From the NCBI GenBank assembly GCA_048213135.1, contig PS015145.1:31791-88456 (forward strand): DNA of 56,666 nucleotides, written 5' to 3'. The DNA is from Reclinomonas americana ATCC 50394. Its lineage: Eukaryota. This document shows positions 13,301-44,700 of the stretch, one piece after another (positions within the stretch are counted from its first letter, which is position 1; each line of letters opens with the position of its first letter). The translations under genes and the position numbers were made by a program. Under the pieces are notes generated by a model that saw only the letters and a program-made list of their open reading frames with translations, was not told the origin of the DNA and did not search any database.

Positions 13301-13309
13301 GTCGACTAA
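7345..13309 (+). CDS. Large multi-exon protein: helical N-terminus, degenerate NB-ARC/STAND-like domain, TPR-like C-terminus
   Basis: ATG at 7345 and GT-AG introns. VVVLHGPLGACAGDVA sits at the Walker A position without GKT (9781). Downstream are FSDSPLAQLLAAA (GxP-like), ATELMEMFAVLDSRPVP and LYDMHPGVRR (MHD-like), followed by TPR-like helical hairpins. Stop at 13309. Confidence 0.6.
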
Positions 13310-13371
13310 GGAAGAGAGACTCGCAGGCGATTAAATTTTTGTTGTTGCTGTTTACCGACTTCAGGTGTTTA

Positions 13372-16837: not shown

Positions 16838-19664
16838 ATGGTGCGTATTACAGAGGAGATGCTGCGCAAGCGGTCGGAGCACAATGAGGTGAGTTGTGTG
16901 TGTGGAAAGAGGGCGGGAAAAGGAAAGAGGCGGGTGATCGTTGTTGACTGACAACTCTCTCTCACAGGGTCAACTGAGTACTCTGGAGGAGGTGCGTCTT
17001 GTGTGTGAGTGTAAGGAGACTGTGCAGATGCTCACACGCAGCTTACACAGATCACGTTGCATCAGTTCGACATTGGTTGGTGATGATGTTCTCTCTCCTC
17101 CTCTCCTCTTCTCTCCTCTCGTTCTCCCCTTCTCTGTTCTCTCCTGTCTCTCTCTCTTCTCCTTCTCTCTCTCCTCTCTCTCTCTTCTCTCCTTCTCTCC
17201 TCTCTCCTGTCTCTCTCTTCTCCTTATCTCTCACCCCCACCTCTCCACATCACAGAGCGCATTGAGCTGCTGGGCGACTACTGCCGCAAGCTGCGCATTG
17301 TGTATCTGCAGAACAATCTCATTCCCAAGATCGAGAACCTGCACCACCTGAAAGAGCTGCGATACCTCAACTTGGCCATCAACAACGTGTCGCGCATCGA
17401 AGGCCTCGAGCAGAACGAGGCACTGGAGAAGTTGGATCTTACGGTGAACTTTGTCGACGATCTGCTCAGCATTGAGTCGCTGCGCGGCAACTACAATCTG
17501 CGCGAGATCTACTTGACGGGCAATCCGTGCACGCAGTACGAGGGCTACCGGGAGTTTGTGATCAATGCGCTGCCGCAGCTGACGGTATGGTCTTTGTGTG
17601 CTTGTTTGTGTCTGCGCGGCTCGGGTGTTCACCTCGGCGTGCAGTGGCTCGATGGGCAGGAGATTACGCGAGGTGAGCGGCTGCTGGCCGCGCAGAGGCG
17701 CGAGGAGGTGCGGGCACGGATCGTGGAGCAGCAGGCGGTGGCGATTGCGGAGAATCAGGAGAAGGAGAGGCAGGCGGCGGAGAAGATCCGCAAGCAGCGC
17801 GAGGACGATGAGGCGCGCATCCAGCGACAACTCGAGCAGCAGAGGGCGGCCGCTGGCGAGGGTGAAGGTGTGTGTGTGTGCACGCGGGAGAAAGAGTGGA
17901 GGGAGTGTCGAGAGATTCATGTGGTGATGTGCACAGGATCGTCAAGTGGGGCGGCGCCTGCGGAACCAGTGGAAACCGATCCGTGGACACTGGCCGTCGA
18001 CGCCAGCAAGGAACACACGTACGGTCACTCACGAACGGAGCGTGTGGCCATCTACAGCGAGATTGAGGAACTGCGACAAAAGGCCGGTGCGTCGCGCACT
18101 GTGGATCCGAACGGACTGACGGAGACTGAGCGAGTTGCGTGGTGGCGCCTTCCTTTTCTTCTTGTTGTTGTGTGCTGACCCAGTGCATGCACAGGCGGGC
18201 AAGGCACCAAAACGCNNNNNNNNNNNNNNNNNNNNNNNNNNNNNNNNNNNNNNNNNNNNNNNNNNNNNNNNNNNNNNNNNNNNNNNNNNNNNNNNNNNNN
18301 NNNNNNNNNNNNNNNNNNNNNNNNNNNNNNNNNNNNNNNNNNNNNNNNNNNNNNNGTGCGCTCCGCTGCCGAGAGCCGCGGTGGCGCCGGTCGCACCTTG
18401 GGCATGGTCAGCACGAGCTCGCCAGTGACGGCGGAGCGCTGCGCCTTTGAGCGTCCCACATGCACCTCCTCGGGGAGCACCAGTTGCAGCAGCTGCGCAC
18501 AACAGTGAGGAGAGGAAAGAAAAAGAACAAGCGTGTGCGCCACACCTTGCCCTTGATGTCGAGGCGAATAAATGTCGGATGCAAGTCGACGTCGATGAAC
18601 GACGAGTCGAGGAACTTGCCCGGCCACACATGCAGCACCACATTCAGGCGATTCTCCTCCTCAAAGCTCCACTTCCACTGGCCCTCGTTTTTCATCATCA
18701 CTCGTCCATACAGTGCAATCTCCTCGTCCACGGTGCGCCGTACNNNNNNNNNNNNNNNNNNNNNNNNNNNNNNNNNNNNNNNNNNNNNNNNNNNNNNNNN
18801 NNNNNNNNNNNNNNNNNNNNNNNNNNNNNNNNNNNNNNNNNNNNNNNNNNNNNNNNNNNNNNNNNNNNNNNNNNNNNNNNNNNNNNNNNNNNNNNNNNNN
18901 NNNNNNNNNNNNNNNNNNNNNNNNNNNNNNNNNNNNNNNNNNNNNNNNNNNNNNNNNNNNNNNNNNNNNNNNNNNNNNNNNNNNNNNNNNNNNNNNNNNN
19001 NNNNNNNNNNNNNNNNNNNNNNNNNNNNNNNNNNNNNNNNNNNNNNNNNNNNNNNNNNNNNNNNNNNNNNNNNNNNNNNNNNNNNNNNNNNNNNNNNNNN
19101 NNNNNNNNNNNNNNNNNNNNNNNNNNNNNNNNNNNNNNNNNNNNNNNNNNNNNNNNNNNNNNNNNNNNNNNNNNNNNNNNNNNNNNNNNNNNNNNNNNNN
19201 NNNNNNNNNNNNNNNNNNNNNNNNNNNNNNNNNNNNNNNNNNNNNNNNNNNNNNNNNNNNNNNNNNNNNNNNNNNNNNNNNNNNNNNNNNNNNNNNNNNN
19301 NNNNNNNNNNNNNNNNNNNNNNNNNNNNNNNNNNNNNNNNNNNNNNNNNNNNNNNNNNNNNNNNNNNNNNNNNNNNNNNNNNNNNNNNNNNNNNNNNNNG
19401 CGCCAGTGGCAGAAGCAAATGGAGGCCGACATGGAGGAGACGGGTGACGGCCCGTATCTCTCTGACGAGGAGGGTGCCGATGATGACGATGATGTGGATG
19501 CAGAGAAGAGATCAACTGGGGAATCCGCAGCCGCCGCCGCCTCTGCACCTCCACCGCCCAAGCCACGAGAGAGTGTGGACTATCGCACAATCGTACGCGG
19601 TGGCAGCGGATCAGTGGCGGCGTCAACACCCGCGATGCAAGAGCGCGAGACTCGACGACTATAA
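16838..19664 (+). CDS. DNAAF11: Dynein axonemal assembly factor LRRC6/DNAAF11 (tilB)
   Basis: MVRITEEMLRKRSEHNE, CRKLRIVYLQNNLIPKIENLHHLKELRYLNLAINN, LYLTGNPC-type LRRcap (IYLTGNPC) and WLDGQEITRGER. The CS-domain exons lie in the inverted contig 18356-18743. Acidic tail, then TAA at 19664. Confidence 0.92.
18356..18743 (-). other. Gap-flanked contig carrying LRRC6 CS-domain exons in inverted orientation
   Basis: The minus strand encodes KNEGQWKWSFEE...KFLDSSFIDVDLHPTFIRLDIKGK|LLQLVLPEEV...AQRSAVTGELVLTMPKV, typical of the LRRC6 CS-like region. Confidence 0.9.
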
Positions 19665-23134: not shown

Positions 23135-24734
23135 TCACTTATCTTCTGGTCGCACAACGACGGCCGGAGTCTGCTGCCGCGCTGGCGGGTGCGCGCGTGT
23201 CGACGGTGGCGAGATGATGTCCCACATGTTGGCCCATATGGAACCGCGGTCGTAGAAATTGCGAACTTCCACCTCGTTCCACACTCGTTCCAGTTCCTCT
23301 TCGGTGACGGTCTCGTCGTTGAGGTTGATTGCGGCCGCTGATTGTGAGCCGGCTCCACGTTGCTTGATGTGGCCGCTGGAAGAGGCGGGATTGGAAGGGG
23401 TGCAACCGGGCGGCTCCTTGGCACCGCGCTTCGGCTTGTCCTTTTTCTGTTGCTTGGCAGTCGACGTCTTCTTGTCGTCGACAATGCCACCGGCGAGACG
23501 CAGCTGCCTCCGGCGACGGTAGTAGTCGGCGGTGGAGTGGATGTCTTGCCACTTGAATGACTCGGCGGTGGTCATGTTGCGCGACATGAGGTACTTGGGC
23601 GAAAGGAGAAGTGAGCCGAGACAATGGTTGCATGCACGTCGCCACCACAACGAAGACGCACCAGGTGGTACACAGTGAACCACAACAGGAACCCAACAAA
23701 CACCGCGGAGAGGATGAAGAGGAACACCAGCGCCGAGTAGTAGCTCATCAGATACTGAGCGGGAAAGCATGAGCGAGAAGCGTGCGCAGGGGTGAGCACG
23801 AGCTGCACACCTGCAGAATGGTCCAGTGCGTGGGCCAGTACATCTCCTCGGTCTCATACACCACAAACTGGCGGTTGTACAGATCCTGCGAGGTGACAAT
23901 GTGCATCGCGGTGGCCAGCGCCGTGTACATGCCATACGACACCATGGCGAGGTTGACAAAGAGGAACGCCATAAAGTGGCGATAGTTGAGCTCGCCAATG
24001 TCGGTGTTGAGCCACACACAGTGGTGATCCATGCGCTGCGACACGCGTGTGAGCGGTGAAGAGACACACAACAAACAAAGGAAGAGTTGTCTGCCACACG
24101 CAACTGCAACACACTGATTGCACACGGAGCAGTGCTTGGAGCGCGCGGGTCGCTCAAACTTGCACGTGCCACACGTCTTCTCCACGTACAACAGCTGATC
24201 GAGCTCATATGCTGCCGCGTACTTGGCCACATTCCGCTTGGTGATCACTCCCGGGTCGGCAAACGAGGCCCACACAAACATGGCCAGTGACGCGCCAACA
24301 ACAACCGTACCACCATACCTTCACGAGAGAGAGACACACACACAGGATGAGCGTCTTGCTTGTCTGTGTGTGTGTGTGTGTGCGTGTGTGGCGACTCACT
24401 GATGCGCCTCTGAGAGGTACTCGTGTGGCAACTCGGCGGCGACCGTGTCCTCGAAAAAGTAGAGGCCCGTGAGCAGCAGCAGCACGTAGAGGATCTGCAC
24501 GAGTGGGTTGGGCGTGCGAGTCACGTAGTGCTGCAGGCGGTGCCAGAGAGTGCGCGGTGGGGCATTGTCGCCTGTGACTTGTGATCGTCGTGTGCAGTCG
24601 AGCTTTTGCAGGAGGGCTTCGCGGGTGCGGCCGACCCATGTGTTCTGCAGAGCGGGTGTGTTGCCGCAGCCGCAGACGAGCAGGAGGAAGCCGCCGGTGG
24701 CGGTGTAGAGGGTGAGGATGATGGCGGGCCACAT
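23135..24734 (-). CDS. DHHC protein S-acyltransferase (SWF1/ZDHHC4-like)
   Basis: ADPGVIT, CGTCKFERPARSKHCSVCNQCVA|RMDHHCVWLNTDIGELNYRHF, NMTTAESFKW and NFYDRGSIWAN, plus several TM helices. Confidence 0.92.
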
Positions 24735-24811
24735 GAAGAAGAGAAGGGATGGATAGTGAAAGTCCTGTCCGCCTGTTGTTGTTGGTGTTGCAAACTAAAC
24801 AGACGCGGGCT
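24735..24811. promoter_or_regulatory. Probable bidirectional promoter between the DHHC gene and NLR-like copy 1
   Basis: Divergent ATGs at 24734 (-) and 24812 (+) are 77 bp apart. Confidence 0.5.
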
Positions 24812-27800
24812 ATGGCACTGCTGACAGACGAGGAGTTGCGTATGAGCTCACACCTCCTACTTCTCCACACTCCTCCTCTCACATGCCTTGTGCCCCAGAT
24901 CGAACTGCGTGCGCGCCATGAAAGCAGTACGTGGCGTGGCTGCTCGTGCGCTGCGTGCATTGGTGGAACAAGAGCTGCCTGTGTTTGTGCGGCGATGCGC
25001 GGAGGAGACGGAGGCGTCGGGAGCGGGGAAGGTGGAGTTGATGAGGGAGTGGATGAAGAAGCAGGTCAACAAACGAGATGCACGGTGTGTGTCTTGTCCA
25101 ACTTCCACTCCTCTCCTTTGCCTCCATGCTGATGCCGGGTGTCACACAGCACTGCGCCAGCGGGATCTGACCGCGAGCGAGTGTTGTGCTATGACTCATC
25201 GCGTGCTGCCATGGACGAGTGGCAGCGAGCGTTGGATGCTGGCGAGCCTGCTCCCTCGTGCCAGGCGTTTGACATTACGTGGCTCACGTCGGTGTTGCTG
25301 AACGCACGCTGGGCGCTGAGGGTGGACGCCGCTGCGCACGAGGTGCGACATCTGATCTCCGACGCAACGCAGGTGTGCGGATAAATGCATGCTTTTCCCT
25401 GCTCCTCGTCTGCCTTCTCTCTCACCTCTCAGTGCAGCGCGAGGCGATCGGCGGCCTGCGTGAGTTGCGCAACGAGCTCATGCATGGTGCAGACATGAGG
25501 CTCTCCGCAGAAGGGTTGCGCCAGCTGCTGGGAGACGAGAGCAAAGATGGACAAGTCGCTGTGCTGTTGCGACAAGCCGGCGTTCCGCAGCTGGACACCT
25601 TCTTGCGAGATATTGATGCCGTTCGCCGCGGTGCGTGTGAGCAAGAGCGTGCATGCATGTGTGTGAAGAGAATGATGCTCATCAGTATGGGTTTTTGTTT
25701 GCCTCACGTGCAGCCGCGGCGCCTGTCGGCAACCCAATCACCTTCTGCAACGTGGGTCAGCTGGACGGATTCCCGTTTCCCAGTCGTGTTGTCGAGGCCG
25801 AGCGACTCGCCGAGCGACTGCTGGAGTGTGATGCTGGTGAGTAGATGTGGTTTTCGTTTTCTCATTCTCTCTCTCTCTCTCTCTCTCTCGCACTCATCCA
25901 CTCTCTCTCTCTCCCTCACAGGTGACACGCCCGGAATCCTTGTGCTCTCTGGTGAAGGAGGAAGCGGGAAGACCACACTAGCGGAGCTGGTGGTGTCGGA
26001 GATGGAGCGCAGGAAGTGGCGTGGCTCTGCACTGTACTCGGATATGCGCGGTCACACAGCTGATGCTCATCGCTTCACGTCGGTGAGTGAGCAGAGAGTG
26101 GATTTTCTTGAGTGCAATGATGTGTTGATCGTGGTGATGCAGACAATGGAGGTGCTCGGGAATGGACTGCGGGGATTCGCGCACGCCATGATGCCAGTGC
26201 AGTCCGATGCATAGCTGCTGGCCCAGATTGATGCGTGGGAGCGGAGCGAAGATGTGGACGCGCTGCGCAGCCGTTTGAGTGACTTGATGCATGACAGTCA
26301 CTGCGTGCTGTTGCTTGACAATGTCGGCAGCGGAGATCAAGTGCTGGCAGTTATGCGGGCGGAAGGCGCGCGCAGTCGAGTTCGTTCAGGTGTGTGCATG
26401 TATGGGCGAGCTGAGTAGATCTAGATCACCCTGTGGCTCACTATCGCGCGCATCTGCTGTGTACAGGCGTCTGCCGGATGACGGCGCCAATGACAATTGT
26501 AACAACTCGATTCAGTCGGGTAGCTGAGCAGCTGAAGCAATCGCCGTTGTTGAGCTCGGTGACGGTGTTGCATGTGGCCGTGGGTGATGTGGAACTGGAG
26601 GATGTGGCCAAGTATGTACGTCAGCAAATCGATGCACCTGAGGAGATCTGTAACGAGGTCACACAGGCGACGGTAGCGAAGCCGCAGGCATTTCGTGTTG
26701 CCATGTGTCTAAGGTACGCTCTCGCGCATAGCGCTTCTCTCACCGCTTAACGAGTGACTGGGGGATGACACACGCAGTATGCTTGCACGAGAGTCGCTGG
26801 AAACACTTGCCGGTGATGAGTTGCATGGACGACTTGCGGCGACTCGAGCGCTCGCACTGGAGGAGCTAATGAGCAAGAATTTGGCGGAGTGTTCGCCGCT
26901 GATGCGACGTGTGCTGGTGCTGGTGGCGGCTTTGCAGCAGATGCGCGTGCATGCGACGAGTCGCACGGTGTCACTGCTGACCCTGGCGATGAGCGCTGGC
27001 GGAAGCAATGGGGAGTACGGTAGTCAGGATGAGAAAGTAAGGGAAGCACTAGAATGGCTTCGTCGGTCAATGCTGTTGCAGGCCAGGGTGTCACATTCGT
27101 GTGATGCATTGTGCCAAATGATGTCTGGTGATGACTTTGTGGTCTCGCCCTCGAGGGTGGAGTACGGAGTTCACGATCTATTGATGGAATGGATCGTTAC
27201 GCGAAATCGAGAGAGTGAGCTGCTCGAGTGGAGAGATATTGTGGCTGACGCGATTCTGAGTGGCGTGAGCCGTTGCGAAGCTGGAGTTATCAGCGACGCG
27301 ACACTTGCCGACATTCGTCCATGTTTACAAGTGCTGTGGAGTGATCTGTTGCCGATGATGACGCGACGATGGGTATGGAACGCAGTGCCAGTTGACATAC
27401 TGGAGGCGTGGCTCACCGGTGTTCTTGTCCTTGCTCAACTTGTGGAGAGACGACTTCCAGTCGGCGAGTTTGGCGCCAATGTGGCGGTGGAATGTGCCGG
27501 ATGGCTGCGTGAGCAATCTCTCAGTGGAATGGATCGGAGTTTGTTGCACCTGAGAACACGGTGTGTGGCAGCGCTGTTGATTAGTGCGCGTCGCGACAGT
27601 GACGCCGCCGAGTATTTGGAGGGGTATCTGTCGACCGTGGTGTCCACGGACGATGAAAATACGATAGCAGTAATCCGACATCTGTACGCAGACTGTCTGC
27701 GAAGCACAGGCAAACTAACTGAAGGCGAGCGGCTGTACCGGCAGGTACTTGCACAGAAACGTGAGTTTCTGGGCGACAGGCATCGAGACACGTTGGCTGT

Positions 27801-29658
27801 CATGAACGATCTTGCCAAATGCACGCAGGCGACCGGCAATCTCGACGAAGCCGAACGACTGTACTGGGAGGTATTGGAGTTGAGACGAGAGGTGCTTGGT
27901 GCCAGACATTTAGACTCGTTAGCTGTCATGAACAATCTTGCCGACTGCATCCAGGGGGGCGGCAATCTTGCTGAAGCCGGGCGACTGTACTGGGATGTTT
28001 TGGAGTTGAGACGAGAGGTGCTTGGCGCCAGACATCCAGACACGTTGACTGTTATGAACAATCTCGCCGACTGCGTTCAGAAGAGCGGCAGTCTCGCCGA
28101 AGCCGAGCGACTGTACCGTGAGGCGTTGGCGCTGAGACGTGATGTGCTTGGTGACAAGCATCCGCTCACACTTATGTCCGTGAACAATCTCGCCATGTGC
28201 ATTCATGAGAGTGGGAACCTCTCTGAAGCCGAGCGACTGTTTCGAGAGGTTCTGATGGTTAGGCGAGAGGTGCTTGGTGACAGACATCCAGACACGCTGG
28301 CGTCCATGAACAATCTTGCCAACTGCATACAGGAGAGAGGCAGTTCGGTTGAAGCCGAACGCCTCTTTCAAGAGGTGTTGGTGCTGCGACGGGAGGTGCT
28401 TACTGACAAGCACCCCGACACTTTGTCTTCCATGGCCAATATCGCCATGTGCGTCCAGTCCAGCGGCAACTTCGACGGAGCCGAGCCATTGCATCAGGAT
28501 GTGTTGGCGTTGAGACGTCAAGTGCTTGGTGACAGGCATCCAGACACGCTTATGTCTATTAACAATCTCGCCGACTGCGTCCAGAAGAGGGGCATTCTCG
28601 CCGAAGCCGAGCGATTGCATCGGGAGGTGCTGGCGTTGAGGCGCGAGGTGCTTGGCGAAAGGCATCCGAGCACGCTGGCATCTATGAGTGGGCTTGCCAA
28701 CTGCATCCAGACGAGTGGCAATCTCTTCGAAGCCGAGCGATTGCATCGGGAGGTGTTGGCGTTGAGACGCGAGGTGCTCGGCAAAAGGCATCCAGACACG
28801 CTGGCATCTATAAGTGGGCTTGCCAAGTGCATCATGGACAACGGCAATCTCGCCGAAGCCGAGCGACTGTATCAGGAGGTGTTGGTGTTGCAACGGGAGG
28901 TGCATGGTGACAGGCACTCAGACACGCTGGCGTCCATGAACTACCTCGCCGTGTGCATGCAGTCCAGTGGCAATCTCGTCGAAGCCGAACGACTGCATCA
29001 CGAGGCGTTGGTGTTGCAGCGTGAGGTGCTTGGTGACAGACATCCTCTCACGCTTTCGTCCATGAACAATCTCGCCATCTGCATCAAGGACAGCGGCAAT
29101 CTCTCCGAAGCCGAGCAACTGTGCCGTGAGGTGTTGGCGTTAAGACGTGAGGTTCTGGGCGCAAGGCATCCAGACACGCTGGCATCCATGAGCACTCTCG
29201 CCATGTGCATCAATGAGAGCGGCAATCTCGCTGAAGCTGAACGACTGTGTCGTGAGGTGTTGGTGTTGCAGCGTGAGGTGCTTGGTGACAGGCATTCAGA
29301 CACGCTGGCGTCCATGAACAATCTCGCATTGTGCATCCAGGCGAGCGGCAGCGCTAGCCTCGCAGAAGCCGAGCGACTCTTTCAGGAGGTTTTGGCGTTG
29401 AGAAGTGAGGTTCTGGGCGCAAGGCATCCAGACTCGCTGACGTCCATGAGCAACCTTGCCATGTGCATCAAGGCAAGCGGTAATCTCGCCGAAGCCGAGC
29501 GACTGCTTCGGGAGGTGTTGGCGTTGCGGCGTGCAGTGCTTGGTGACGCGCACCCAGACACACAGGTGTCGGTCAATAATCTTCGCACAATTGAGCAACA
29601 GCGTCAAGTCTCACAAGGGTGCTCTCTTACACGAACACGCACTTGCGTTTTCCTGTAA
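24812..29658 (+). pseudogene. NLR-like gene copy 1: DZIP3-type HEPN + NB-ARC-type NTPase + ~15 TPR + CaaX, with in-frame TAG at 26212
   Basis: MALLTDEE|SNCVRAMKAVRGVAARALRALVE, FDITWLTSVLLN, LRELRNELMHG (25468-25485), Walker A GEGGSGKT (25951-25974), Walker B VLLLDNV, IVTTR, VHDLL (27169), 126-bp repeats, and C-terminal CVFL*. TAG at 26212-26214 aligns with CAG in copy 2, so coding status is uncertain. Confidence 0.75.
27712..29590 (+). repeat. Coding tandem array of ~15 x 126 bp (42-aa kinesin-light-chain-type TPR)
   Basis: Consensus [42 protein letters not shown]; no introns in the array. Confidence 0.95.
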
Positions 29659-30297
29659 GTTTGGCTCCACACGGCTCACGGAGTGATTCTGAAGGCTTGT
29701 CATGAACATATGACTTTTTGATGATTGTGATTCGTTTTTTTCGTTTACTTCCCAAGTCCGCATTCAAGGCTGACGGTGAGAAAATCGAAAGTCAGCAGCA
29801 GTAGCTCGACATAGTCACCGACGATGACAACGCATACGACCAACTGCAACTCAATGTGAACTGCATGCGCCCATTCAACATTTGCGCCGCAGCGAGCGCT
29901 ACAGTAGTAGCATGCCGCGCAGCGCTGCTGATATGTGCTTGACCGACTGCACGCCATGCTCTCTATTGTTCAACCTCATAATCAGTGACGCCTCCACTGC
30001 TCTGCTTGTTTCACGAGCACGCTCCTGGCTCCCTGGCGTCGGCCTTCTCCGACGACGTCGACTGTTGTACGTTTCGTCGCTTGCGCTGTCGAGGCTCATT
30101 TCGAGGAGACTTACGACTGCATAGAGGCACTTTAACGAATTCTGCACAGCTGGCGTGCTATCAACAAGCAGACAAGCAGACCAGGAGCGTCCTGTCCGCA
30201 CCTGCCTGGCTTGTTTTTCCGGCAAATCTGGCGCATGCGCAGCGCTGCGCGCGTGTCGTCAGACGGACAGCTGCTGTCAGCTTGATAGAATTCACTC

Positions 30298-33200
30298 ATG
30301 GCGTTGCTGACTGACGAGGAGTTGTGTAGTCATCCTCTTTCTCCGCACACCACCTCCTCTCACTTCCCTTGTGCCCCAGATCGAACTGCGTGCGCGCCAT
30401 TAAAGCCGTGCGTGGCGTGGCTGCTCATGCGCTGCGTGCGCTGGTGGAACAAGAGCTGCCTGTGTTTGTGCGGCTATGTGCGGAGCAAACAGAGGCGTCG
30501 GGAGCGGGGAAGGTGGAGTTGATGAGAGAGTGGATGAAGAAGCAGGTCACCAAACGAGATGCGCGGTGTGTGTCTTGTCCAAATTCCGCTCTTCTCCTTG
30601 GCCTCCATGCTGATGCCGAGTGTCGCGCAGCACTGCGCCTGTGGGATCAGACCGCGAGCGAGTATTGTGCTATGACTCGTCGTGTGTTGCCATGGACGAG
30701 TGGCAGCGTGCGTTGGATGCCGGCGAGCCTGCTCCCTCGTGCCAAGCGTTTGATATTACGTGGCTCACGTCGGTGTTGCTGAACGCACGCTGGGCGCTGA
30801 GGGTGGACGCCGCTGCGCACGAGGTGCGGCATCTGATCTCCGACACAGCGCAGGTGTGCTGATAAATGTATGCCTTCCTCCCTCTCTCGTTCTCATCTCT
30901 CGGTGCAGCGCGAGGCGATCGGCGGACTGCGTGAGTTGCGCAACGAGCTGATGCATGGTGCAGATATGCGGCTGTCCGCAGAAGGACTGCGCCAGCTGTT
31001 GGGAGACGAGAGCAAAGACGGACAGGTCGCTGTGTTGTTGCAACAAGCTGGCGTTCCGCAGCTGGACACCTTCTTGCGAGAGATTGATGCTGTTCGTCGT
31101 GGTGCGTGTGAGTAGGAGCGTGCATGCATGTGTGTGAAGAGAGTGACGCTCATCAGTATGGGTTGTTGTTTCTGACACGCAGCCGCGGCGCCTGTCGGCA
31201 AGCCAATCACGTTCAGCAACGTGGGTCAGCTGGACGGATTCCCGTTTCCCAGTCGTGTTGCCGAGGCCGAGCGACTCGCCGAGCGCCTGCTGGAGTGTGA
31301 TGCTGGTGAGTGGATGTGGGTTCTCATTTCTTTATTCTCCCTCGCACTCATCCACTCTCTCTCTCTCTCCCTCGCAGGTGACACACCCGGAATCATTGTG
31401 CTCTCTGGCGAAGGAGGTAGTGGCAAGACCACACTGGCGGAGCTGGTGATCTCGGAGATGGAACGCAGGAAGTGGCGTGGCTCTGCGCTGTACTCGGATA
31501 TGCGCGGTCACACTGCCGATGCTCGTCAATTCACGTCGGTGAGTGAGGAGAGAGTGCGAGTGCGGCCACAGGGTTGTTGATCATGGCGATGCAGACAATG
31601 GAGGTGCTCGGGAACGGACTGCGGGGATTCGCGCACGCCATGATGCCGGTGCAATCGAACGCTCAGCTGCTGGCCCAGATTGATGCGTGGCAGAGGAGCG
31701 AAGATGTGGATGCGCTGCGCAGCCGTTTGAGTGACTTGATGCACGACAGTCACGGTGCGCTGTTGCTTGACAATGTCGGCAGCGGAGATCAAGTGCTGGC
31801 AGTTCTGCGGGCGGCAGGCGCGGGCAGTCGAGTACGTTCAGGTGTGTGCGTGTATGGGTGAGCTGAGTAGATCACCCTCTGGCTCACTTTCCCGTCTGCT
31901 GAGTACAGGCATGACAGCACCAATGACAATCGTGACCAGTCGATTCAGTCGAGTAGCCGAGCAGCTGAAGCAATCGCCGCTGCTGAGCTCGGTGACGGTG
32001 GTGCATGTGTCGATGGGTGACGTGGACAGGGAGGACGTGGCCGATGCCGAGCGACTGTATCGGGAGGCGTTGGAATCGAAGCGTGCGGTACTTGGTGACA
32101 GACACCCAGATGCGCTGGCGTCCATGAGCAATCTCGCCAGCTGCCTCAAGGCAAGCGGCAATCTCACCGAAGCTGAGCGACTGTTCGGAGAGGTGCTGGC
32201 GCTGAGGCGTGAGGTGCTAGGCGAGAAGCACGCAGACACGCTGGCATCAGTGAGCAATCTCGCGAACTGTATGCTGGCGAGCGGCGTTGTTACCGAAGCT
32301 GAGCAACTGCATCGGCAGGTGCTCGCATTGAGGCGCGAGGTACTTGGTGACAGACATCCGTCTACGCTGGCATCCATGAGCGATCTCGCCGTCTGCATGC
32401 AGGCGAGCGGCGATCTCTCGGAAGGCGAGCGACTGTATCGAGAGGTGCTGGCACTGAGGCGTGCGGTTCTGGGAGACAGGCATTCGGACACGCTGTCTTC
32501 CATGAACAATCTCGCCAGTTGTTTGTTGGCAAGCGGCAACCCGACTGAAGCCGAACAGTTGTATCGCGAAGCTTTGACGTTGAGGCGTGACAAGCTCGGC
32601 GACAAGCATCCGGACACGGTGACTTCTATGAGCAGTCTCGCCAGCTGCATGCAAGCGAGCGGCAAATTTGCTGAAGCCAAGCAACTTTATCAAGAGGTTG
32701 TGGTGCTGAGGCGCGAGGTTCTCGGTGCCAGAGATCCCGACACGCTGACATCGATGAGCAATGTTGCTACTTGCGTCCACGCCAGTGGCAATGTTGTCGA
32801 CGCCGAGCGACTGTACCGGGAGGTGCTGGAACTGAGGAGGGAGGTGCTTGGTGTCAGGCATCCACGCACAGTGTCGTCCACGTACGATCTCGCCACCTGC
32901 ATCGAGGCCAGCGGCAACCTCACTGAAGCAGAGCGACTGTATCGAGAGGTGTTGGCATGGAGGATAGAGGTGCTGGGTGCCAGGCGACCAGACACGTTGA
33001 CTGTCATGAGTGATCTTGCCCGGTGCACGCAGATGAGCGGCAATCTCGTCGAAGCTGAACGCCTTTTCCACGAGGTGTTGGTGCTGCGACGGGAGGTGTT
33101 TGGTGACCAGCACCCCGACACGCTGACGTCCATGGCCAATGTCGCCAAGTGCATGCAGGCCAGCGGCAATCTCTCCGAAGCCGAGCAACTGCATCGAGAA

Positions 33201-34457
33201 GTGCTGGCGCTGAGGAGAGAAGTGCTTGGCGAGAGACACCCAGACACGCTGGCGTCCATGAACGATCTCGCCAACTGCACGCAGGCAAGCGGTATCGTCA
33301 CCGATGCAGAGCGTCTGTATCGGGAGGTGCTGGCGCTGAGACGCGAAGTGCTCGGCGACAGGCACCCCGAGTCTCTGTTGTCCATGAGCGACCTCGCCAG
33401 CTGCATGCAGGCGAGTGGCGACCTCGCCGAGGCGGAGCGACTGCACCGAGAGGTGTTGGCGTTGAGGCGTGAGGTGCTTGGCGACCGGCATCCGAGCACG
33501 TTGACGTCCATGGCCAGTGTCGCCAAGTGCATGCAGGCCAGCGGCAATCTCGCCGAGGCCGAGCGATTGTTTCGAGAGGTGTTGGCACCGAGACGCGAGG
33601 TTCTCGGCGACAGGCACCCCGACACGCTGGCATCGCTGAACAGTCTCGCCAGCTGCCTGCAGGAGAGCGGCAAGCTCGTCGAAACCGAGCAATTGCTTCG
33701 GGAGGTGTTGACGTTACGACGGAGCTCGCTTGGCGACAGAAACCCGGACACGCTTACGTCTGTAAGTAGTCTCGCCACGTGCGTGCAGGCAAGCGGCAAT
33801 CTCACCGAAGCCGAGCGACTGCACCGGGAGGTGTTGGTGCTGCGACGGGAGGTTCTTGGTGCCAGGCATCCGCACACGCTTCTGTCGATGGCCAGTCTCG
33901 CCAGGTGCTTACAGGTCGGCGGCAATCTTGCCGAAGCCGAGCGACTGTATTGGGAGGTGTTGGCATTGCAGCGTCAAGTGTTTGGTGACAGGCACCCACT
34001 CACGGTGACGTCCTTGAGCAACCTCGCCATGTGTGTTCAGGCCAACGGCAACGTCTTCGAAGCCGAGCGGCTGTACTGGGACGCGTTGACGTTGCAGCGG
34101 CAGTTGCTTGGCGACAGGCACGCTGACACGCTGTCGACCATGAACAATATCGCCAACTGCATGCAAGCGAGCGGCAATCTGGAGGAGGCCGAGCGACTGT
34201 ATCGGGAGGTGTTGGCATTGCGGCGGGAAGTGCTTGGTGACCGACACCCAGCGACGCTGAACAGCCTCGCCAGTTGTCTGCAAGAGAGCGGCAATCTCGC
34301 CGAAGCCGAACGACTGTATCGCGAGGTGCTGGCGCTGCAACGTGAGATGCACGGCGACACGCACCCGGACACACAGCAGGCGCTGCACAACTTGCGTGCA
34401 GTTGAGCGACAGCAGCGCAGCGCACAGCGATGCTTGCGCAAGTGCGTTCTCCTCTGA
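30298..34457 (+). CDS. NLR-like gene copy 2: HEPN + NB core (helical/winged-helix part absent) + ~19 TPR + CaaX
   Basis: Same exon/intron layout as copy 1. RNELMH at 30939-30956, GEGGSGKT at 31407-31430, ALLLDNV and IVTSR. The frame then runs directly from EDVA into DAERLYRE (32042/32043) and ends RCLRKCVLL* (TGA 34455-34457). Confidence 0.85.
32043..34395 (+). repeat. Coding tandem array of ~19 x 126 bp (42-aa TPR)
   Basis: Same consensus as copy 1; unit 18 is 3 aa short (HPATLNSLA). Confidence 0.95.
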
Positions 34458-34624
34458 TCGGAAAATATTAATGTTAAGCCAGTGAATTACGAGACGCGAT
34501 CGCCTATCTCTCGTAGATTGCTGTTTGGCATGCTTCGATATCTTTTCCCTTTGCAAGCAATCAGACACACATGAACATCGATGCTTGTTCGGAGCACTAA
34601 ACTCCGCACAGTTTCTCTCGGGCA

Positions 34625-34842: not shown

Positions 34843-34925
34843 AGAGCGCGCGAAGAAGGAGTAGCCTTAAGTGCCGCCTAATCTCTTGTTGCATTCACCC
34901 GCTCTCTCTCTCACTAACTCACTTC

Positions 34926-35014
<89 letters not shown>

Positions 35015-38000
35015 TCACTCACTCACTCACTCACTCACTCACTCACTCACTCACTCACTCACTCACTCACTCACTCACTCACTCACTCACTCACTCACTC
35101 ACTCACTCACTCACTCACTCACTCACTCACTCACTCACACTTCCACACACTTTCACACACTTTCACACACTTTCACACTCCCTTCCCTCACTCTCCCCTC
35201 ACAGATGCCTCTCCGCGCGGTGAGTCTCGCCGGCGACCTCTCTCACCTTCGCGCGATCACCTCCACTCGTGGTGTGCGTGTGTGTGACGTTGAGGGCGAC
35301 TCGTCTGCACAACCTCCATCCTCCAAGGCCGTGGATTCGTTTGCGACACAGGAGGTGGTGGAGGCGGAGGTCGCGTCGGATGTGGTGCATGTGATTGATT
35401 TGCGACGTCCGCTCACCGACGATGATATGGCGGCGCTCGACGATGGGCAGGCGATCTCGTTGGTGTTTGCGAGGAAGGTGAAGGTGAGTGCGTTGTGGGG
35501 AAGGGAGTGTGGGAAGGGGGGCTCTCGTTTCTTGCAGGTTTGTAGTGTTTCTCCTTGATTCTTTGTCACTCTTCTTCTTTCCTCACTCTCTCTTGCTGTT
35601 CGTTTGTATCGCTCCAGCACCGATGTGTCGTCTTCATTCTCTGCTGTTCTTGTTTCCACTCGTTTCTCGCCTTGCACTCTCCATCTATTCTTTCCTCCCT
35701 CCTTTGTTTCGCTTCTCTCCCTCTCTTGGTGTTCGTTTGTATCGCTCCAGCACCGATGTATCGTCTTTATTCTCTGCTGCTTATTTCCTCTCGTTTCTCG
35801 CCTTACACTCTCCATCTGTTCTTTCCTTCGTTTTGCCTTCCCTCTCTTGGGGTTCGTTGGTATCGTTCCGATGCCTGCGCTTCGCTCTTCTTCTCGTCTC
35901 TGCATGTTTCCTCTCGTTTCTTGCTTGTCGCTGCGTTCGTTTGCATCACTCCAGCATCTACGTATCTTCTGTGCTTGGTTCCCCTTCTTTCTTTCGCTGC
36001 CTCCTGACGCTTGCGTGGTTGTCTCCTTTCTCTCTCTCTCCCTGTCTGTGTGTGTGTGTTGGCATTCGTTTGTATCGCTCCAGCACCGATGAATCATCGT
36101 GTTACTATTCTCTGCATGTTCTCTCGTTTCTTTCGCTGCCTCCTGACGCTTTCGTGCTTGTCTTCTCTCTTTTCTTTCTTTCTTGTCGCCAGCACCGATA
36201 TATTGTCTTGCTCCTCTTCCGTGGTGGCTTCTCTCGGTTTGCGCTGCATCTTTTGTGTACTATCCTTTCCCTTCTTCTTTCGCTTCTCTCTTTTTTCTCA
36301 CTTGCTGTTCCTGTGTGACATCGATCTTCTTTTTCGCTTCTCTCTCTCACTTTCTCTCTCGTTTCCTCGTGCTTCCTCGCTCTTGGTGTTCGTTGCATCG
36401 TTTCCTTTTGCTCCCTCGCTTCTCCCCCTCTCCCCCTTCTCCCCCCTCTCCCCCCTTCTCCTCTTCTCCCCTTCTTCCCCCTTCTCCATCTCCTGCTCAT
36501 GGATAACACACACAGGACGGACACGAGGCCGAGTTCACACGCTGGGTGCATGACGGCATCCGGCGAGTCATGCGCAAAGTGCCCGGCTACCTCGGCCTTG
36601 ATCTCATCCGGTGTGTTATTGCCCTCTGCCACTCATATTCCTCTTTTTCCCCTCACCCTCTTGCGCTCGATCCACAGGCCGTCGCAAGACTACGCGGAAT
36701 TCGTATCGGTGTCTCGTTGGGCCGATGTGCACGCCGTTGCGTGTTGCACTGCACCCATTGTCTGCTTCCAATCCATCGGCCACTCATCCCTTCACGATTC
36801 CGCAGCTGAAGCAATTTTTGAACTCGCCCGAACGCATCGCGTGGGTAGACGAGGCCGAGGGCCTGATCGAGGGCTCCACCGACATTCACATCATGGGCAC
36901 CGAGGGCTACTTTACGCTGCCAGAGGACTCCTCCGGCAACAAGCTGGAGATCATCCAGACCACTCCCACTCCCGCTGGTCCACCGGTACGCTCTTTACAC
37001 TTTTCCATTCTCCGCGTCGACGTGTGTGTTGATGTGTGCGTGCCGCAGCCGCCACCGCCGTGGAAGACGTCGGTCACCTTCTTTTTCGGCATGTACCCGA
37101 TCCAAGTCGGGCTCGGCTATCTGTTGCGCCCAAAGACCGCCCTGTGGCCGTTGCCGGGTAGTTCACTGCTGCAGCTCTCCATTGCGGTGACGGCACTGGT
37201 GCTTTTCGTCGCCGCCCACCTCACCTGGTTCTTCTGGTGCTTCCTGTACCCGGGGTACCCGCGGCCGCCGTTTGCAAAAATCTCCATCTTTTGTCTCTTT
37301 GGCAAGGCACCGTGGTGTCGACCTCGCAGCGACGCACCGATAGACGGCGCGACGGCAACCGAAGTAGTTTCCGACCGTCCCCCAGCCTCACCATCTGTGG
37401 CACCCACTGCCGCCGCCGCCGCCAATCTACCGCCGCCAGTACCTAGCGATGAAGGGGGCGACTTGGCGACCGACCGCGACGGGGAGGCGCTCGAGAACGA
37501 CACGACACAGCAGAAGATTCCGCGTCGCGCCATCTTTCATCCAGCCGCCGGCCACCCCGGCTCCGAAACGGAGGTGTGTGTGATGTTCTGCTCTCCTCCG
37601 CGCGACGCGCGTGTCGCGGCCTCACCGCTCATCGCCACTGTGCAGGTGGAGATACCCGAGGTGCATCTGGGGCAGCGGCATGCAAGTTTGCCGATGGCAA
37701 AACTGCCGGGAGACAGCAGTGCCAGTGCCGACCTGCAGCACTTTGATCGCATCCTCAACGAGAAGGATCCGCTGACGGTGACCGTGTCACGTACGGTGAT
37801 TCCCGGCAAGGAGGACGAGTATCTGGATTGGCTCCGCCGGGGCATTCGCACCATCTTCCGCCACAATCCCTCCTACCGCGGCATGACCTTGATCCGGTAT
37901 GTTTCTTTACCTCTCTGCGGTGTGCGTGCTCTCCTCCTCATCTCTATGCGTGTCGCAGACCATCTCCACAACGCACCGAATTCATCATCATCTCTCACTG

Positions 38001-38783: not shown

Positions 38784-41700
38784 TTACCGACCGAGATCCG
38801 ACAAGTCAATTCTGAACTGCTTGGTGGCGGCACCCGCGCTCTTCTGACGGCGGTTCTTAAACACGGAGCCATCTTGCAGTTCGCGTACCATCGAGTCCAT
38901 AATGCCCTTCTCTGGTGCTGCTGGTGCCGCCGCCGATGCCGCCGCAGTGGACGAGCTGCCAGCTGCTGGCGACACGGGCGAGGCGGCCACACGCGAGGCC
39001 ACGCCACCACCGCCGCCAATGGCCACTGCGCAGCAAGTGACACAAGCAAAAAATGAGACCAAGATATGTGCATGGATCACCAAGACGAGTAACGAACCGA
39101 CAGACGCCGCTGCCGCCGCTGACTGAGCCATGGACTGGCGCTGTGCGGCCTCGCGCCTGGCAGCCTGCTCCTCTGCCTTCTTCCGACGCTCCTCCACCTT
39201 GCGCAGCTCGGTGCTGGAGACTTCAAAGTCCCTGAGGAAAGACTCCATGTTCTTGAAGAAGCTCTCCGGATCAAACTTCTTTGGCTCCTCGCCAAAGAAC
39301 ACGGCCAACTTCTCCAGGTCGTCCTGCAACGTCGTAAAGTCGCTGCTGACAGACTCCCACTCGCGATGATGCTCGTCGAGGAACGCCTGGTGGGGGGAGG
39401 GGAGGGGAGAACAGTAAGATAGCCGACGACAGTGACTTGTGAGTGCGCGAGACGAACCTGCATGACTCCCTGGAACCTGTCGCCAGCGCCGGCGGCCTGC
39501 TGAATCTGGTCCTGGATCAACTTCATCGACTTGCTGACGGCGGCAATGTCATCGCGCAGCGCGGGCATGTTCACTGCGGTGCAAGGGTGAGACCGGAGAG
39601 AAGGAGGTGGTAAAGGGAAGGGAAGGGAGGTGAAGAGAGACGATGGAGAAGGATGACAGGCACGAGCGACAAAGAAGAGGGCTGAAACGAAGAGAGTGAT
39701 GCGGAAGGGAAGACGGAGGGAAGGAGGGCGAGAGGGAAGAGTGGAGAGAAACAGGGAGGAAAAGAGAAAGGCAACAGTGACAGTAACAAGTAGGAAGAGA
39801 GGAGAGAAGGTAGTAAGGAGAGAAACAGGGAGGAACACAGTGACAGTAGCGAGAAAGAAGAAAGGAGAAAGGAGGTGAGGATAGCAGCAGCAAGTTGTTC
39901 GGGAGAAGGAAGAGAGACAGATGAAAGCAGAAGATAGCGAGAGACATGGAGAGGACGCAAAGATGGATGCGTCGCACTGCGAGTTTGAGAAGTTGCGCGA
40001 AAGAGAGAGAGAGAGATAGAAAGGCATCTGCGCTTATCCCTCGATCTGTACCTCGGCTGGCGTCGGGGATGTGCGCCAGATCGGCACGCAGATCCATCAG
40101 ATCGGGATACTTGGTCTGGCACAGACGCACAATGTACATCAGCAGCGTCATGCCCTCGGCTCCGCGCGTCTCCTTCAGCTTGCCGAGCGACTCGAGTCGG
40201 AAACCGTACGCATTGCCACGGAATCCGCCGCCGTTCATGTAGTTGCCAATAGCCAACACGATCTCCAGCAGACGCGTCAGCTTGGTGCTCTTGCGCAACT
40301 CTTGCGCGGCAAAGGTGACATTGCTCAATTGCTGTGTGCACGAGCACGGATGAGAACCGAGAACAGAAGTACACGAATTAAGAACACACACGTACCGGCA
40401 CAATGTCGTCCACCAGTGCGCGGTACTTGTATGAGAACAGCCAGCACTTCATGCGCGCCTCGAGACGCGGCACCGTACCGATCTGATGGCAAGGCACACA
40501 CATCAGCACTCAACATGCACCTCATTTTCGTCCTCTCGCACACACAAACAAACGAGACGCAACGACGCGAACAAACTGCTCCGCACGACCGAGCTCGCCC
40601 TGACCATCCCAGCTGCCGACCAACTCGACCTGTCACCGCCACATCACGATGAGTGAGCATGAGCAGATGTACGGCAGAAGCGGTGCGACACACAAACCTC
40701 TTCGGCTGTTGGCGCAATGTTGATCAGCGCTTGCACGTGACGCTCTGTCAGCACATCGCGGTTCATCTGGATGATGGCCTGCCGGAGATCCTCCAGCGGA
40801 ATCTTGGCAAACGTGGAACCGAGCACAATGCCTGCACGACAAATCGACACAGTGCGTAAGCACAAGCACACTCACGCCACTAAACAGGGACGTCGCTCTC
40901 AACTCATGTTCTGGTTGCGCTTGCCCTCCAGCAGCGACACAATCGCCGGGCGACTCGACGACGCCGACGAAGCGGCTGCCGAGGCGGCTGGTGCCGATTC
41001 CACAGCTGAGAACATGGACTCGAGCGAGTCTGTGTCGAGGTCGACCGACGACAGGTTCTCCACAATCTTGCTCTCCGTCCAAATCGAGCCTGCGACCTTG
41101 ATCGGCTGCACCTTGTCCCACTGCACGCCCTTCAGTTTGGTCTTCGGAGCGTACTTGGGGAGTGGTGGTAGTGGCGGACCGGCTGTTAAAGAAAGCAGAG
41201 GAATGAGAAAGAACGTATGATGCAGTTTCGAGACAATTCTCGACCACATGTCCCACCTGGCATGAAGCCCGGCGCAGGCGGCGCACCCGGAGCTGGCGGA
41301 GCACCGGGTGGTGGTGGTGGAGCTCCAGGCGGCGGCGGCGGTCCACCAGGCGGCNNNNNNNNNNNNNNNNNNNNNNNNNNNNNNNNNNNNNNNNNNNNNN
41401 NNNNNNNNNNNNNNNNNNNNNNNNNNNNNNNNNNNNNNNNNNNNNNNNNNNNNNNNNNNNNNNNNNNNNNNNNNNNNNNNNNNNNNNNNNNNNNNNNNNN
41501 NNNNNNNNNNNNNNNNNNNNNNNNNNNNNNNNNNNNNNNNNNNNNNNNNNNNNNNNNNNNNNNNNNNNNNNNNNNNNNNNNNNNNNNNNNNNNNNNNNNN
41601 NNNNNNNNNNNNNNNNNNNNNNNNNNNNNNNNNNNNNNNNNNNNNNNNNNNNNNNNNNNNNNNNNNNNNNNNNNNNNNNNNNNNNNNNNNNNNNNNNNNN

Positions 41701-44700
41701 NNNNNNNNNNNNNNNNNNNNNNNNNNNNNNNNNNNNNNNNNNNNNNNNNNNNNNNNNNNNNNNNNNNNNNNNNNNNNNNNNNNNNNNNNNNNNNNNNNNN
41801 NNNNNNNNNNNNNNNNNNNNNNNNNNNNNNNNNNNNNNNNNNNNNNNNNNNNNNNNNNNNNNNNNNNNNNNNNNNNNNNNNNNNNNNNNNNNNNNNNNNN
41901 NNNNNNNNNNNNNNNNNNNNNNNNNNNNNNNNNNNNNNNNNNNNNNNNNNNNNNNNNNNNNNNNNNNNNNNNNNNNNNNNNNNNNNNNNNNNNNNNNNNN
42001 NNNNNNNNNNNNNNNNNNNNNNNNNNNNNNNNNNNNNNNNNNNNNNNNNNNNNNNNNNNNNNNNNNNNNNNNNNNNNNNNNNNNNNNNNNNNNNNNNNNN
42101 NNNNNNNNNNNNNNNNNNNNNNNNNNNNNNNNNNNNNNNNNNNNNNNNNNNNNNNNNNNNNNNNNNNNNNNNNNNNNNNNNNNNNNNNNNNNNNNNNNNN
42201 NNNNNNNNNNNNNNNNNNNNNNNNNNNNNNNNNNNNNNNNNNNNNTCCAGCACGCGGAGCGCCTCCAGGTGGTGGAGGTGGCGGTGGCGGCGGTGGTGGC
42301 GGCGGTGGCACGCCTCCAGCACTCGGAGCGCGTGCGGCACCTCCAGGTGGTGGTGGTGGCGGCGGTGGAGGCGGAGGAGGCGGCGGTGGCACTCCCTGCG
42401 CGTTGACATGACCCGACGCTGATGGTGGTGGTGGTGGTGGAGGTGGCGGCGGTGGGGGTGGTGGAATCGACTGATCCGAACCTCCCGGTGGTGGAGGCGG
42501 TGGTGGAGGTGGTGGCGGTGGTGGTGGTGGAATCGAATCGTCCGAACCTCCAGGTGGTGGTGGTGGTGGTGGTGGTGGCGGCGGTGGTGGCGGAGGTGGT
42601 GGAGGAGGCGGCGGCGGCGGTATGTCGTCTCCATCAACGCCAATGGGTGGTGGCGGCGGAGGTGGTGGAGGTGGAGGCGGGATGACCGAGCCCGATGCCA
42701 TGGCAACTGCTGCGGCAGTAGCCGGCGTGCCGGACATGGGGGGCGGTGGCGGCGGAATAGCGGCACCCGACGGCGACGGCGGCACGACTGTTGAATGAAT
42801 CATGAACAACAAATCGTCGTACAACCAGACAATCAATGCAAGACTCACGTGAGTGCAAGAAAGATGGCGCCGTGCGGCGACCCTCTTCAATTCCGGCTTC
42901 GTAGGCCAGCCTCGTCACCAGCGTAATGGCATCGCGCGCCAATTGTCCAAGCTGCGAGGATACTCAGTCATGCGATCTTTCGAGGGGAGGGAAGGCGAAC
43001 GAAACTTGGCTCTTGACTTGCAAACGCTGCAGCATTTCGCAAGTCTCACTGAATTCGTGCTTGAACTTGTCCATCGTCAGCTGCTGCAAGCGCTCCATAA
43101 CTATGCGCTCCTGCGCGTTGACAATGTCCAGCTCCTGCACCTTCTTCCGCTCGTCATTCAACGCCTGCTCCAGCTCCTCAATGCGCACAGTGCGATCGTC
43201 CATGTCGTCGACGTCGTCACCATCGCCGCTGCTCAGCGTCTTGCCGATGAAGCGGCCAATCACTTTCAGGCGGCCCATGCGCTCCTCTTCCCGACTGGTA
43301 AGGAAAAGGAGGAGAAGAAATGTGAGATGGGGGGTGAAGAGGATGGAATGGGAAGGGAGAAAAGATGATGGAAGAAAGAAGATGAGAGAGACACACGCAC
43401 ACACCCACAGAGAGAGAGTGGAAAGAGAGGAGATCGGCAAGAAATAGAGAGAGCGTGTGTGCGAGAGAGACAGACAGACACGTAGAGAGAGAGAGGGAAA
43501 AAGGATATCGGCAAGAAAAAAACGATACAAGAGAATATAAAAGAGAGAGAAAGAGAGAATTGAGAGAGTGACACACACACACACAAAGAGAGGAGATCGG
43601 AAAGAATGAAGACGAAAGTGAGAGAGAGAGAGAGAGAGAAGAAAGAGAGAGAGGGAGGAGAGACACACACAAATACAAAGAGAGACCGGGAAAAACGATG
43701 AAGGAACGAGAGAGAGAAGAACGCACCAGAGAGAGACACACACATACATACACTCTCCTCGAAAGGGAGAGACTAGCTGTCCTCATTTCATCCACGCAAC
43801 TCATAATCCGTCTGCGACAACTGGTAGATGCCCTGCAGAATGTCCAAGAACACACCGCGTGCCTCGCGCGACTGCTCGAAACGGCGAGCAATCACTTCAC
43901 TGATTTGCACCGGGTCCTCCACATCAACCTCGTCCTCGTCCTCCTCCTCCATCAGCTCGTCTTCCAGCGCGTCCAAGTGACTCTCGAAGGCCTGGCCAGC
44001 ATCCTCAATGGCACGCAGACTCTGCACGACAGCAACAACGGATCAGTCTTGCGGGGAGATGCAAACGACTGCATAGAAAGCACGCAACCCCAATAATGTC
44101 CATAATGTCGAGCTTCTCAAACTCCTTCTTCAGCTTGCCACGCATGTTGCCGCTGACGTTGATGAACACGTTGATGAATGTCATGCAGGCGATCTTGAAC
44201 TCGGCGTCGTCCACACTCTTGAGCGCGTTCAGCAGCGTCTGGAAGCGGAACTTTTCGCGCTTCACCAGCGCAAAATGATCGATGGCGTCCAGGGCCAGCC
44301 AGAAGATGCCCTGCCCCTCGTCCTTCTTGCGCCTATGCAAAAGTGGTAAATTGAGCGAACGTATGCCATCCAGCAAGAGAACGACAAGAGAGCGGAGACA
44401 CACCAGATGACGACAAAGAGCAGGCGGAGCACTTGCGTCTTGACGCGGACGTTGGGGTAGTCGAACACGAGGAAGAGCTTTTGCAGACTCTTCGAGTAGG
44501 CCAGGAACTTTTCGAGGCCCGACTGCGTGTCGACAATTTGCTGAATGCAGGAGACGGCGCCGAGAAGCACTCCGCGGTCCTCCTCACTGTGCGGCGCCGT
44601 TGGTGAGACGTGCCAATAAGGAGACAGAAAAGGCAACACAAGAACGCAACATGGGCTTCATCTCCTCGTCGCCCATGACGTGGAACAGTTCCTCGAGACC

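Follow-up and report, generated by a model that had tools for sequence, protein, structure and literature searches.

Candidate C-terminal prenylation boxes on two tandem NLR-like genes of Reclinomonas americana

A 56,666-nucleotide stretch of Reclinomonas americana ATCC 50394 DNA (contig PS015145.1, positions 31,791 to 88,456 of the forward strand), hereafter the window, carries two tandem, intron-bearing genes on its plus strand that encode NLR-like proteins and close on a CaaL box, a candidate signal for prenylation by geranylgeranyltransferase I (GGTase-I). The window is draft eukaryotic sequence, with seven runs of N and about 58% G+C. The two genes, here called copy 1 and copy 2, are tandem paralogs from a STAND/NLR-like family that is lineage-restricted, and the open reading frames (ORFs) that end in CaaL are their last exons. 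Both are laid out as an N-terminal region of about 250 residues, an NB-ARC-like P-loop NTPase, an array of 42-residue TPR units and a tail. Copy 1 also contains an ARC/linker region of about 300 residues, which is absent from copy 2. The short GT..AG introns were revealed by aligning copy 1 against copy 2. In copy 1 they were fixed by a frame-consistency search, giving eight GT..AG introns of 60-85 nt, and all copy 1 splice sites are kept in copy 2. The coordinates are collected in Table 1.

Table 1. Positions within the window of the two NLR-like genes, their tails and associated features (PWM, position weight matrix).
Feature	Position	Strand	Details
Copy 1 gene	24812..29658	+	9 exons, 4284 nt, 1427 codons including one internal TAG
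Copy 1 introns	24835-24898, 25085-25149, 25373-25437, 25631-25713, 25837-25921, 26083-26142, 26390-26466, 26714-26777	+	
Copy 1 P-loop exon	25922..26082	+	GEGGSGKTTLA, residue 260
Copy 1 Walker-B-like LLLLDN	exon 26143-26389	+	residue 359
Copy 1 in-frame TAG, codon 327	26212..26214	+	copy 2 reads CAG
Copy 1 IVTTR	exon 26467-26713	+	near residue 395
Copy 1 last exon	26778..29658	+	about 300 residues of ARC/linker, then 15 TPR units, then tail
Copy 1 TPR array	~27724-29619	+	15 units of 42 residues: 14 by pattern and one at a double-length gap
Copy 1 upstream Cys (position -12)	29620..29622	+	TGC; possible S-acylation site
Copy 1 CVFL box and TAA stop	29644..29658	+	TGC 29644-46, GTT, TTC, CTG, TAA 29656-58
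Copy 1 donor-like site at stop, CCT/GTAAGTT	GTAAGT 29655..29660	+	PWM 4.59
Copy 2 gene	30298..34457	+	8 exons, 1234 codons, zero internal stops
Copy 2 exons	30298-30320, 30380-30565, 30631-30853, 30909-31101, 31183-31305, 31378-31538, 31595-31841, 31909-34457	+	
Copy 2 TPR array	32046..34418	+	19 units of 42 residues
Copy 2 upstream Cys (position -8)	34431..34433	+	TGC
Copy 2 donor-like site over Cys codon, CAA/GTGCGTT	34442..34448	+	PWM 8.1, inside the real-donor range
Copy 2 CVLL box and TGA stop	34443..34457	+	TGC 34443-45, GTT, CTC, CTC, TGA 34455-57
DHHC palmitoyltransferase gene (part)	23751-24794	-	candidate ATG ~24734; PF01529, E 1.5e-21; DHHC motif present
Third STAND-like/TPR gene	9822-13310	+	long ORF without Pfam match, then weak TPR_12 (E 2.4e-11)

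The NTPase domain is split by introns, and the Pfam scan was made exon by exon. The sequences GEGGSGKTTLA, LLLLDN and IVTTR or IVTSR are present in both copies and agree with the patterns GxxGxGK[ST], hhhhD and TTR, which we take to be the P-loop, Walker B and RNBS-B-like motifs. Weak Pfam matches to NB-ARC, AAA_16, nSTAND and NACHT were all confined to the P-loop. The NB-ARC profile (PF00931) scored 18.3 and 21.2 bits against a gathering score of 23.5 and was covered at positions 12-42, the P-loop only, so the proteins are labelled NB-ARC-like STAND NTPases and not certified members of NB-ARC. The first-pass annotation had called the genes NLR-like, and the label holds, as the three motifs lie upstream in both copies and the TPR_12/TPR_10 matches accompany them. 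The Pfam scan of the N-terminal region found no significant family, its sole match being a sub-threshold one to DUF4559 (E 0.006-0.03). At residue 155 of this region both copies read RNELMH (exons 25438-25630 and 30909-31101), a sequence of the HEPN-like Rx4-6H form. A HEPN nuclease was considered as the N-terminal domain and set aside; RNELMH is present, yet no HEPN family matched in the Pfam scan.

The ARC/linker of copy 1, which runs from IVTTR to the TPRs, gave zero Pfam matches. It contains a VHD tripeptide at residue 600, the resemblance of which to MHD was judged by eye. A word-indexed protein search with this region returned 0 matches among 8000 candidates, phmmer against 1.84 billion representatives returned one weak match (E 9.6e-5), and no relative was confirmed in metagenome contigs scanned with the ARC region or the Walker-B exon. 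In Pfam, TPR_12 and TPR_10 dominate both ORFs with E values of 4.7e-149 to 3.7e-201. The spacing is 42 residues in nearly all units, which is of the kinesin-light-chain (KLC) type, and the best PDB sequence matches of the TPRs were 4y6w, KLC1 and 4y6c, representing KLC1/2 and the 42-residue TPR-like repeats of Podospora. A protein search with the tail region gave 404 matches, and the 120 listed were all generic TPR_10/12 proteins, matched at 34-57% identity over the TPR part only.

Copy 1 ends in CSLTRTRTCVFL, its ORF at 26779-29658 translating to a terminus of QGCSLTRTRTCVFL, and the ORF of copy 2 at 31755-34457 translates to a terminus of RSAQRCLRKCVLL, the last residues before the stop being CLRKCVLL. 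In both copies the ORF has a Cys at exactly the fourth position from its C-terminal end. The tail residues, the two box Cys codons (TGC 29644 and TGC 34443), the basic residues and the second Cys were read in the ORF translations just as the first-pass annotation had described them. It had also remarked that the tails differ in length and sequence yet keep the box, the second Cys and the basic residues, and the alignment agrees, with a 12-nt in-frame gap and 11/26 residues identical. The 11-residue linkers in front of the boxes are SQGCSLTRTRT in copy 1 and QQRSAQRCLRK in copy 2. Nine of the 11 residues are small or polar in each and none is acidic; basic K/R residues number two in copy 1 and four in copy 2, and position -1 is T in the former and K in the latter.

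The boxes can be set against the published preferences of the enzyme. Yeast GGTase-I is described as preferring Cxa[L/F/I/M/V], a rule derived by experiment and said to be common to the mammalian enzyme, and CVLL is given there as the natural and essential box of yeast Rho1 (PMC11304957). The PrePS description is of a small or hydrophilic, flexible linker of 11 residues, with Ser and Lys favoured at -1 and more Lys from -1 to -7 for GGT1 (PMC1175975). CVFL and CVLL both obey the rule, their a2 being nonpolar and their X hydrophobic, and the composition of both linkers agrees with the PrePS account. The proposal that a CaaL box with basic residues is a GGTase-I signal is in keeping with these rules for both copies. 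Cdc42 and some guanylate-binding proteins (GBPs) carry such boxes.

The tails are homologous and not independent, as their DNA can be aligned with a single in-frame gap of 12 nt. Beyond the final HPDTQ that the copies share, 15 of the 26 aligned residues have changed and a 4-codon in-frame indel has occurred, and five of the 11 identical residues are the C, R, C, V and L of the box region, both Cys included. Box and stop together are identical at 12/15 nt. The similarity between the copies ends at the stop codon; over the 100 nt that follow, ungapped identity is 27%, which is the random level, and no significant similarity was found downstream of the stops in the DNA or in three forward frames. 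The last TPR unit has a synonymous divergence (dS) of 0.89 and an omega of 0.36. Neutral retention was estimated by Jukes-Cantor simulation, counting as retained a Cys at -4, a nonpolar a2, L or F, and the stop, and at d = 0.89 only 0.4% of the simulated tails kept the box. Retention of the box, observed in a single pair of paralogs, is moderate evidence for constraint.

Over 433 codons the ratio of nonsynonymous to synonymous divergence (dN/dS) is 0.134 with a dS of 0.267, and both genes are clearly under purifying selection. Exons 1-8 are 91.7% identical (1183/1290), with a single gap of 9 nt that is in frame, and the introns are 83.0% identical (376/453) with 48 gap columns. The last exons are open over 959 codons in copy 1 and 900 in copy 2. 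The 5' unit, introns included, is 88% identical (24812-26609 against 30298-32042), and the TPR and tail part is at 72-75% nucleotide identity, far below the 5' part (dS 0.27 against 0.89 in the last unit). Because of the dS of the last unit, the 3' parts are taken either to be far older than the 5' parts or to evolve faster. The contrast suggests that the 5' part underwent gene conversion, or that the repeats were shuffled and diversified rapidly.

The reading we favour, at roughly even odds (about 0.5), is that the CaaL tails anchor an NLR-like protein through a prenyl group at its C-terminus. The stop codons as read would be the true coding ends. A putative host GGTase-I would geranylgeranylate the Cys at -4, with the usual Rce1/Icmt processing to follow. 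The conserved upstream Cys, beside the basic residues, may provide a second membrane signal through S-acylation, charge, or both, and the TPR (sensor) end would thereby be held on a membrane. Translation through to the CaaL end, lipidation and membrane location are all predicted here from the gene sequences. The first-pass annotation had gone further and suggested a membrane such as the plasma membrane or a food vacuole; nothing in the sequence stands behind that choice. A number of observations weigh against a prenyl anchor, and each is set out below with the alternative that it bears on.

The box could be an unused relic that arose a single time, by chance, in the ancestor of the two copies and has yet to decay in either, with the protein neither prenylated nor given any role by it. 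We hold this to be unlikely. With just two related sequences to compare, the retention of the box amounts to a single comparison, 2/2 paralogs keeping it and no further homologs having been found by the protein, phmmer and metagenome contig searches; the searches with the ARC/linker and the Walker-B exon left no relatives in which its conservation could be compared. The simulated retention depends on the divergence assumed, and rises to about 3% at d = 0.5 and to about 14% at d = 0.27, which is the value for a tail that diverged no faster than the 5' exons. A Cys at -4 is also common in this GC-rich DNA. Among the stop-bounded frames of at least 30 residues in the window (n = 1034), 70 have one. 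On the side of the prenyl anchor, only 12 of these frames end in C-aliphatic-aliphatic-X and only three in C-a-a-[L/F], namely copy 1, copy 2 and one of the other 1032. Set against a relic are the high local divergence, in which the dS of the last unit, the 15 changed residues, the indel and the random sequence after the stop bring retention down to the 0.4% figure, the fact that the second Cys and the basic residues were likewise kept, and the quality of the boxes, both of which are optimal GGTase-I sequences and go beyond mere CxxX. None of the 120 generic TPR_10/12 proteins among the matches listed (404 in total) ends in CxxX.

The 3' ends may instead have been mis-called, in which case a donor-like site at 29655, at 34442 or at both would splice to a short downstream exon and the mature protein would not bear CaaL. 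Candidate donors were scored with a PWM trained on nine local donors, real donors scoring 6.4-11.4 apart from one weak donor at -2.3. The site over the Cys codon of copy 2 scores like a real donor, a value matched by just 1/204 and 0/148 GT sites within the ORFs, and a possible TAG acceptor in a pyrimidine-rich context lies at 34516, 75 nt downstream. The GTAAGT at the stop of copy 1 is followed by a pyrimidine tract and then an AAG 102 nt away. The third STAND-like gene of the window does splice in such a setting, at TGC GTG (TCG/GTGCGTG), where its ORF had seemed to end in RRCVM. Several features speak for the stops as read. That similarity between the copies breaks off at the stop codon supports them indirectly. 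The two donor-like sites do not correspond in position and each is absent from the other copy, the position in copy 1 that corresponds to the copy 2 site reading ACT TGC with no GT, whereas TGCGTT (Cys-Val) and the stop are kept. The putative downstream exons of the two copies have no similarity. Real acceptors are CAG in 8/8 introns and the candidates are TAG and AAG; position -1 is G in 8/9 training donors and T or A in the candidates. The score of the copy 1 site is unremarkable, being equalled or exceeded by 26/204 and 28/148 GT sites within the ORFs, and a chance site within an ORF at 27561 scores 11.28 without a usable acceptor. Mis-called ends are in our judgment a serious though fairly unlikely alternative.

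It could also be supposed that both copies are decaying into pseudogenes, so that neither now yields a full-length protein with its tail. The first-pass annotation had spoken of both paralogs as ending in CaaL boxes, and this stands for the ends themselves but is qualified for the genes, as the reading frame of copy 1 is broken by a premature TAG and the ARC/linker is missing from copy 2. The TAG falls at codon 327, in an NTPase exon, and because of it the tail of copy 1 would be untranslated in the gene as assembled. Reading TAG as Gln was rejected as unlikely; the two terminal ORFs have zero in-frame TAG in 959 + 900 (1859) codons, and TAG therefore does not commonly serve as a sense codon here. 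Since purifying selection acts on the rest of the gene and the assembly is a draft with seven N gaps, this lone TAG could be a recent nonsense change, one allele, or an assembly or base-call error. In copy 2 there is no equivalent of positions 26610-27708 of copy 1, the ARC/linker of about 1.1 kb, and the NTPase core is joined directly, in frame, to the TPRs at a junction near 32042; without the ARC/linker copy 2 may be a crippled switch. Copy 2 also has ATT in exon 2 where copy 1 has an internal ATG. Decay is nonetheless very unlikely. The low dN/dS is not that of genes adrift, the exons are without frame-breaking indels while the introns are full of them, every splice site is kept, the terminal ORFs are open over their full length, and copy 2 lost its ARC/linker without a shift of frame.

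In AlphaFold2 models made with no alignment, the last helix continues into the tail in both copies. The tail of copy 1 was of low confidence (predicted local distance difference test, pLDDT, of 73 and then 55 over the last 18 residues), and the whole tail of copy 2, box included, was a confident helix (last block at pLDDT 92). According to the PrePS paper, prenylation is compatible with a tail that is helical, hGBP1 being an example (PMC1175975), and the helix result is for that reason treated as neutral. The spacing between the Cys residues differs between the copies (three residues in copy 2, seven in copy 1), which makes a metal site unlikely. TPR domains often bind C-terminal peptides, and the V-x-L end could in principle be a ligand for the protein's own TPR groove or a partner domain, or else part of an amphipathic membrane helix without lipid, a reading to which the modelled helices lend themselves and which is highly improbable, as it leaves the retention of the Cys at -4 and of the second upstream Cys unexplained.

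A prenyl anchor on these proteins would have partial counterparts in known systems. The Rho-family substrates of GGTase-I, such as yeast Rho1 with its CVLL, share with the two copies the same or nearly the same CaaL box, adjacent upstream basic residues and a possible second Cys for lipidation. They differ in the carrier, which here is a STAND NTPase of 1234-1427 residues with a TPR array and not a small GTPase, and lipidation here is predicted. The GBPs with a CaaX box are large immune-type NTPases in which a C-terminal helix ends in the prenylation box. Unlike the two copies, they have a GTPase fold of the dynamin-like kind and lack both NB-ARC and TPR, and they bear no sequence relation to the copies. 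Among NLR-type switches, the plant proteins RPS5 and RPS2 are described as acylated at the N-terminus, with a C-terminal prenylation/palmitoylation signal only on the guardee RIN4 (PMC3801107), and NLRP3 is presented as an S-acylated NLR (PMC11392533). All three are held at membranes by lipid, as is proposed here; they use N-terminal myristoyl or palmitoyl groups or internal S-acylation, whereas the two copies have their box at the C-terminal sensor end.

The closest likeness in layout is to the NB-ARC-TPR proteins. Those of Acanthamoeba and Ectocarpus are presented as candidate pattern-recognition receptors (PMC4053784). Together with the fungal ones and the Podospora repeats (4y6c and 4y6w), they have the same arrangement of a P-loop NTPase and self-similar 42-residue TPRs of the KLC type. 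The two copies depart from them in an ARC/linker without confirmed relatives and a sub-threshold Pfam NB-ARC score, and the CaaL end has no counterpart among the listed TPR matches.

The first-pass annotation considered C-terminal prenylation of an NLR to be unusual, and the literature searches agree in that they yielded no precedent. A full-text search found no paper joining NB-ARC, TPR and CaaX. In the parts of the papers examined from a full-text search on NB-ARC and prenylation, no prenylated NLR was described; a search on STAND, NTPase and CaaX gave nothing relevant by title; and the matches to NLR with CaaX or prenylation, as far as they were viewed, concerned NLRP3 S-acylation or the mevalonate pathway. 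If real, this would be a C-terminally prenylated, NLR-like STAND protein without precedent in the literature searched. The location of an NLR determines its sensing range and its mode of signalling. A prenyl anchor at the C-terminal repeat end, if true, would lay the solenoid on the membrane with the effector domain facing the cytosol, a geometry different from that of the N-terminal or internal acyl anchors known for NLRs, and a large STAND protein would join a list of GGTase-I clients that consists mostly of small GTPases.

The DHHC palmitoyltransferase gene of Table 1 lies head to head with copy 1, and the distance from ATG to ATG is 77 nt (~24734 against 24812). Its adjacency is curious beside tails with a second, possibly S-acylated Cys, and may be plain gene density. 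A bolder proposal, which we regard as a long shot, is of a protist/fungal NLR-like family doubly lipidated at the sensor end, by geranylgeranyl on the CaaL Cys and palmitate on the conserved upstream Cys, with the DHHC neighbour as a co-regulated acylating partner. If true, receptor and lipidating enzyme would form a module, and the TPR sensor would lie flat on the membrane, for example watching a membrane-bound target.

The third STAND-like/TPR gene was also considered as a CaaX case and rejected. The apparent end in RRCVM (12538) has its Cys at -3 and is a splice donor, and the real end of the gene is APSPVD at about 13310. Compared with copy 1, this gene showed no similarity by BLASTP. Elsewhere in the window, ordinary eukaryotic neighbours are an LRR_9 gene (17087-18175, plus strand), a diaphanous-type formin with FH2 and FH3 (38787-44583, minus strand) and a CstF-77/Suf-like gene (53797-56666, minus strand). 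Searches for Rfam families and for tRNAs found neither. Fragments of a GH94-type glycoside phosphorylase (49170-51631, minus strand) have best relatives at no more than 42% identity, proteins of Myxococcales metagenome-assembled genomes included, and were possibly acquired laterally. Long (CA)n and CACTCA-like microsatellites occupy 34900-35200, just 3' of copy 2, and (CT)n runs lie inside introns, for example at 25860-25900.

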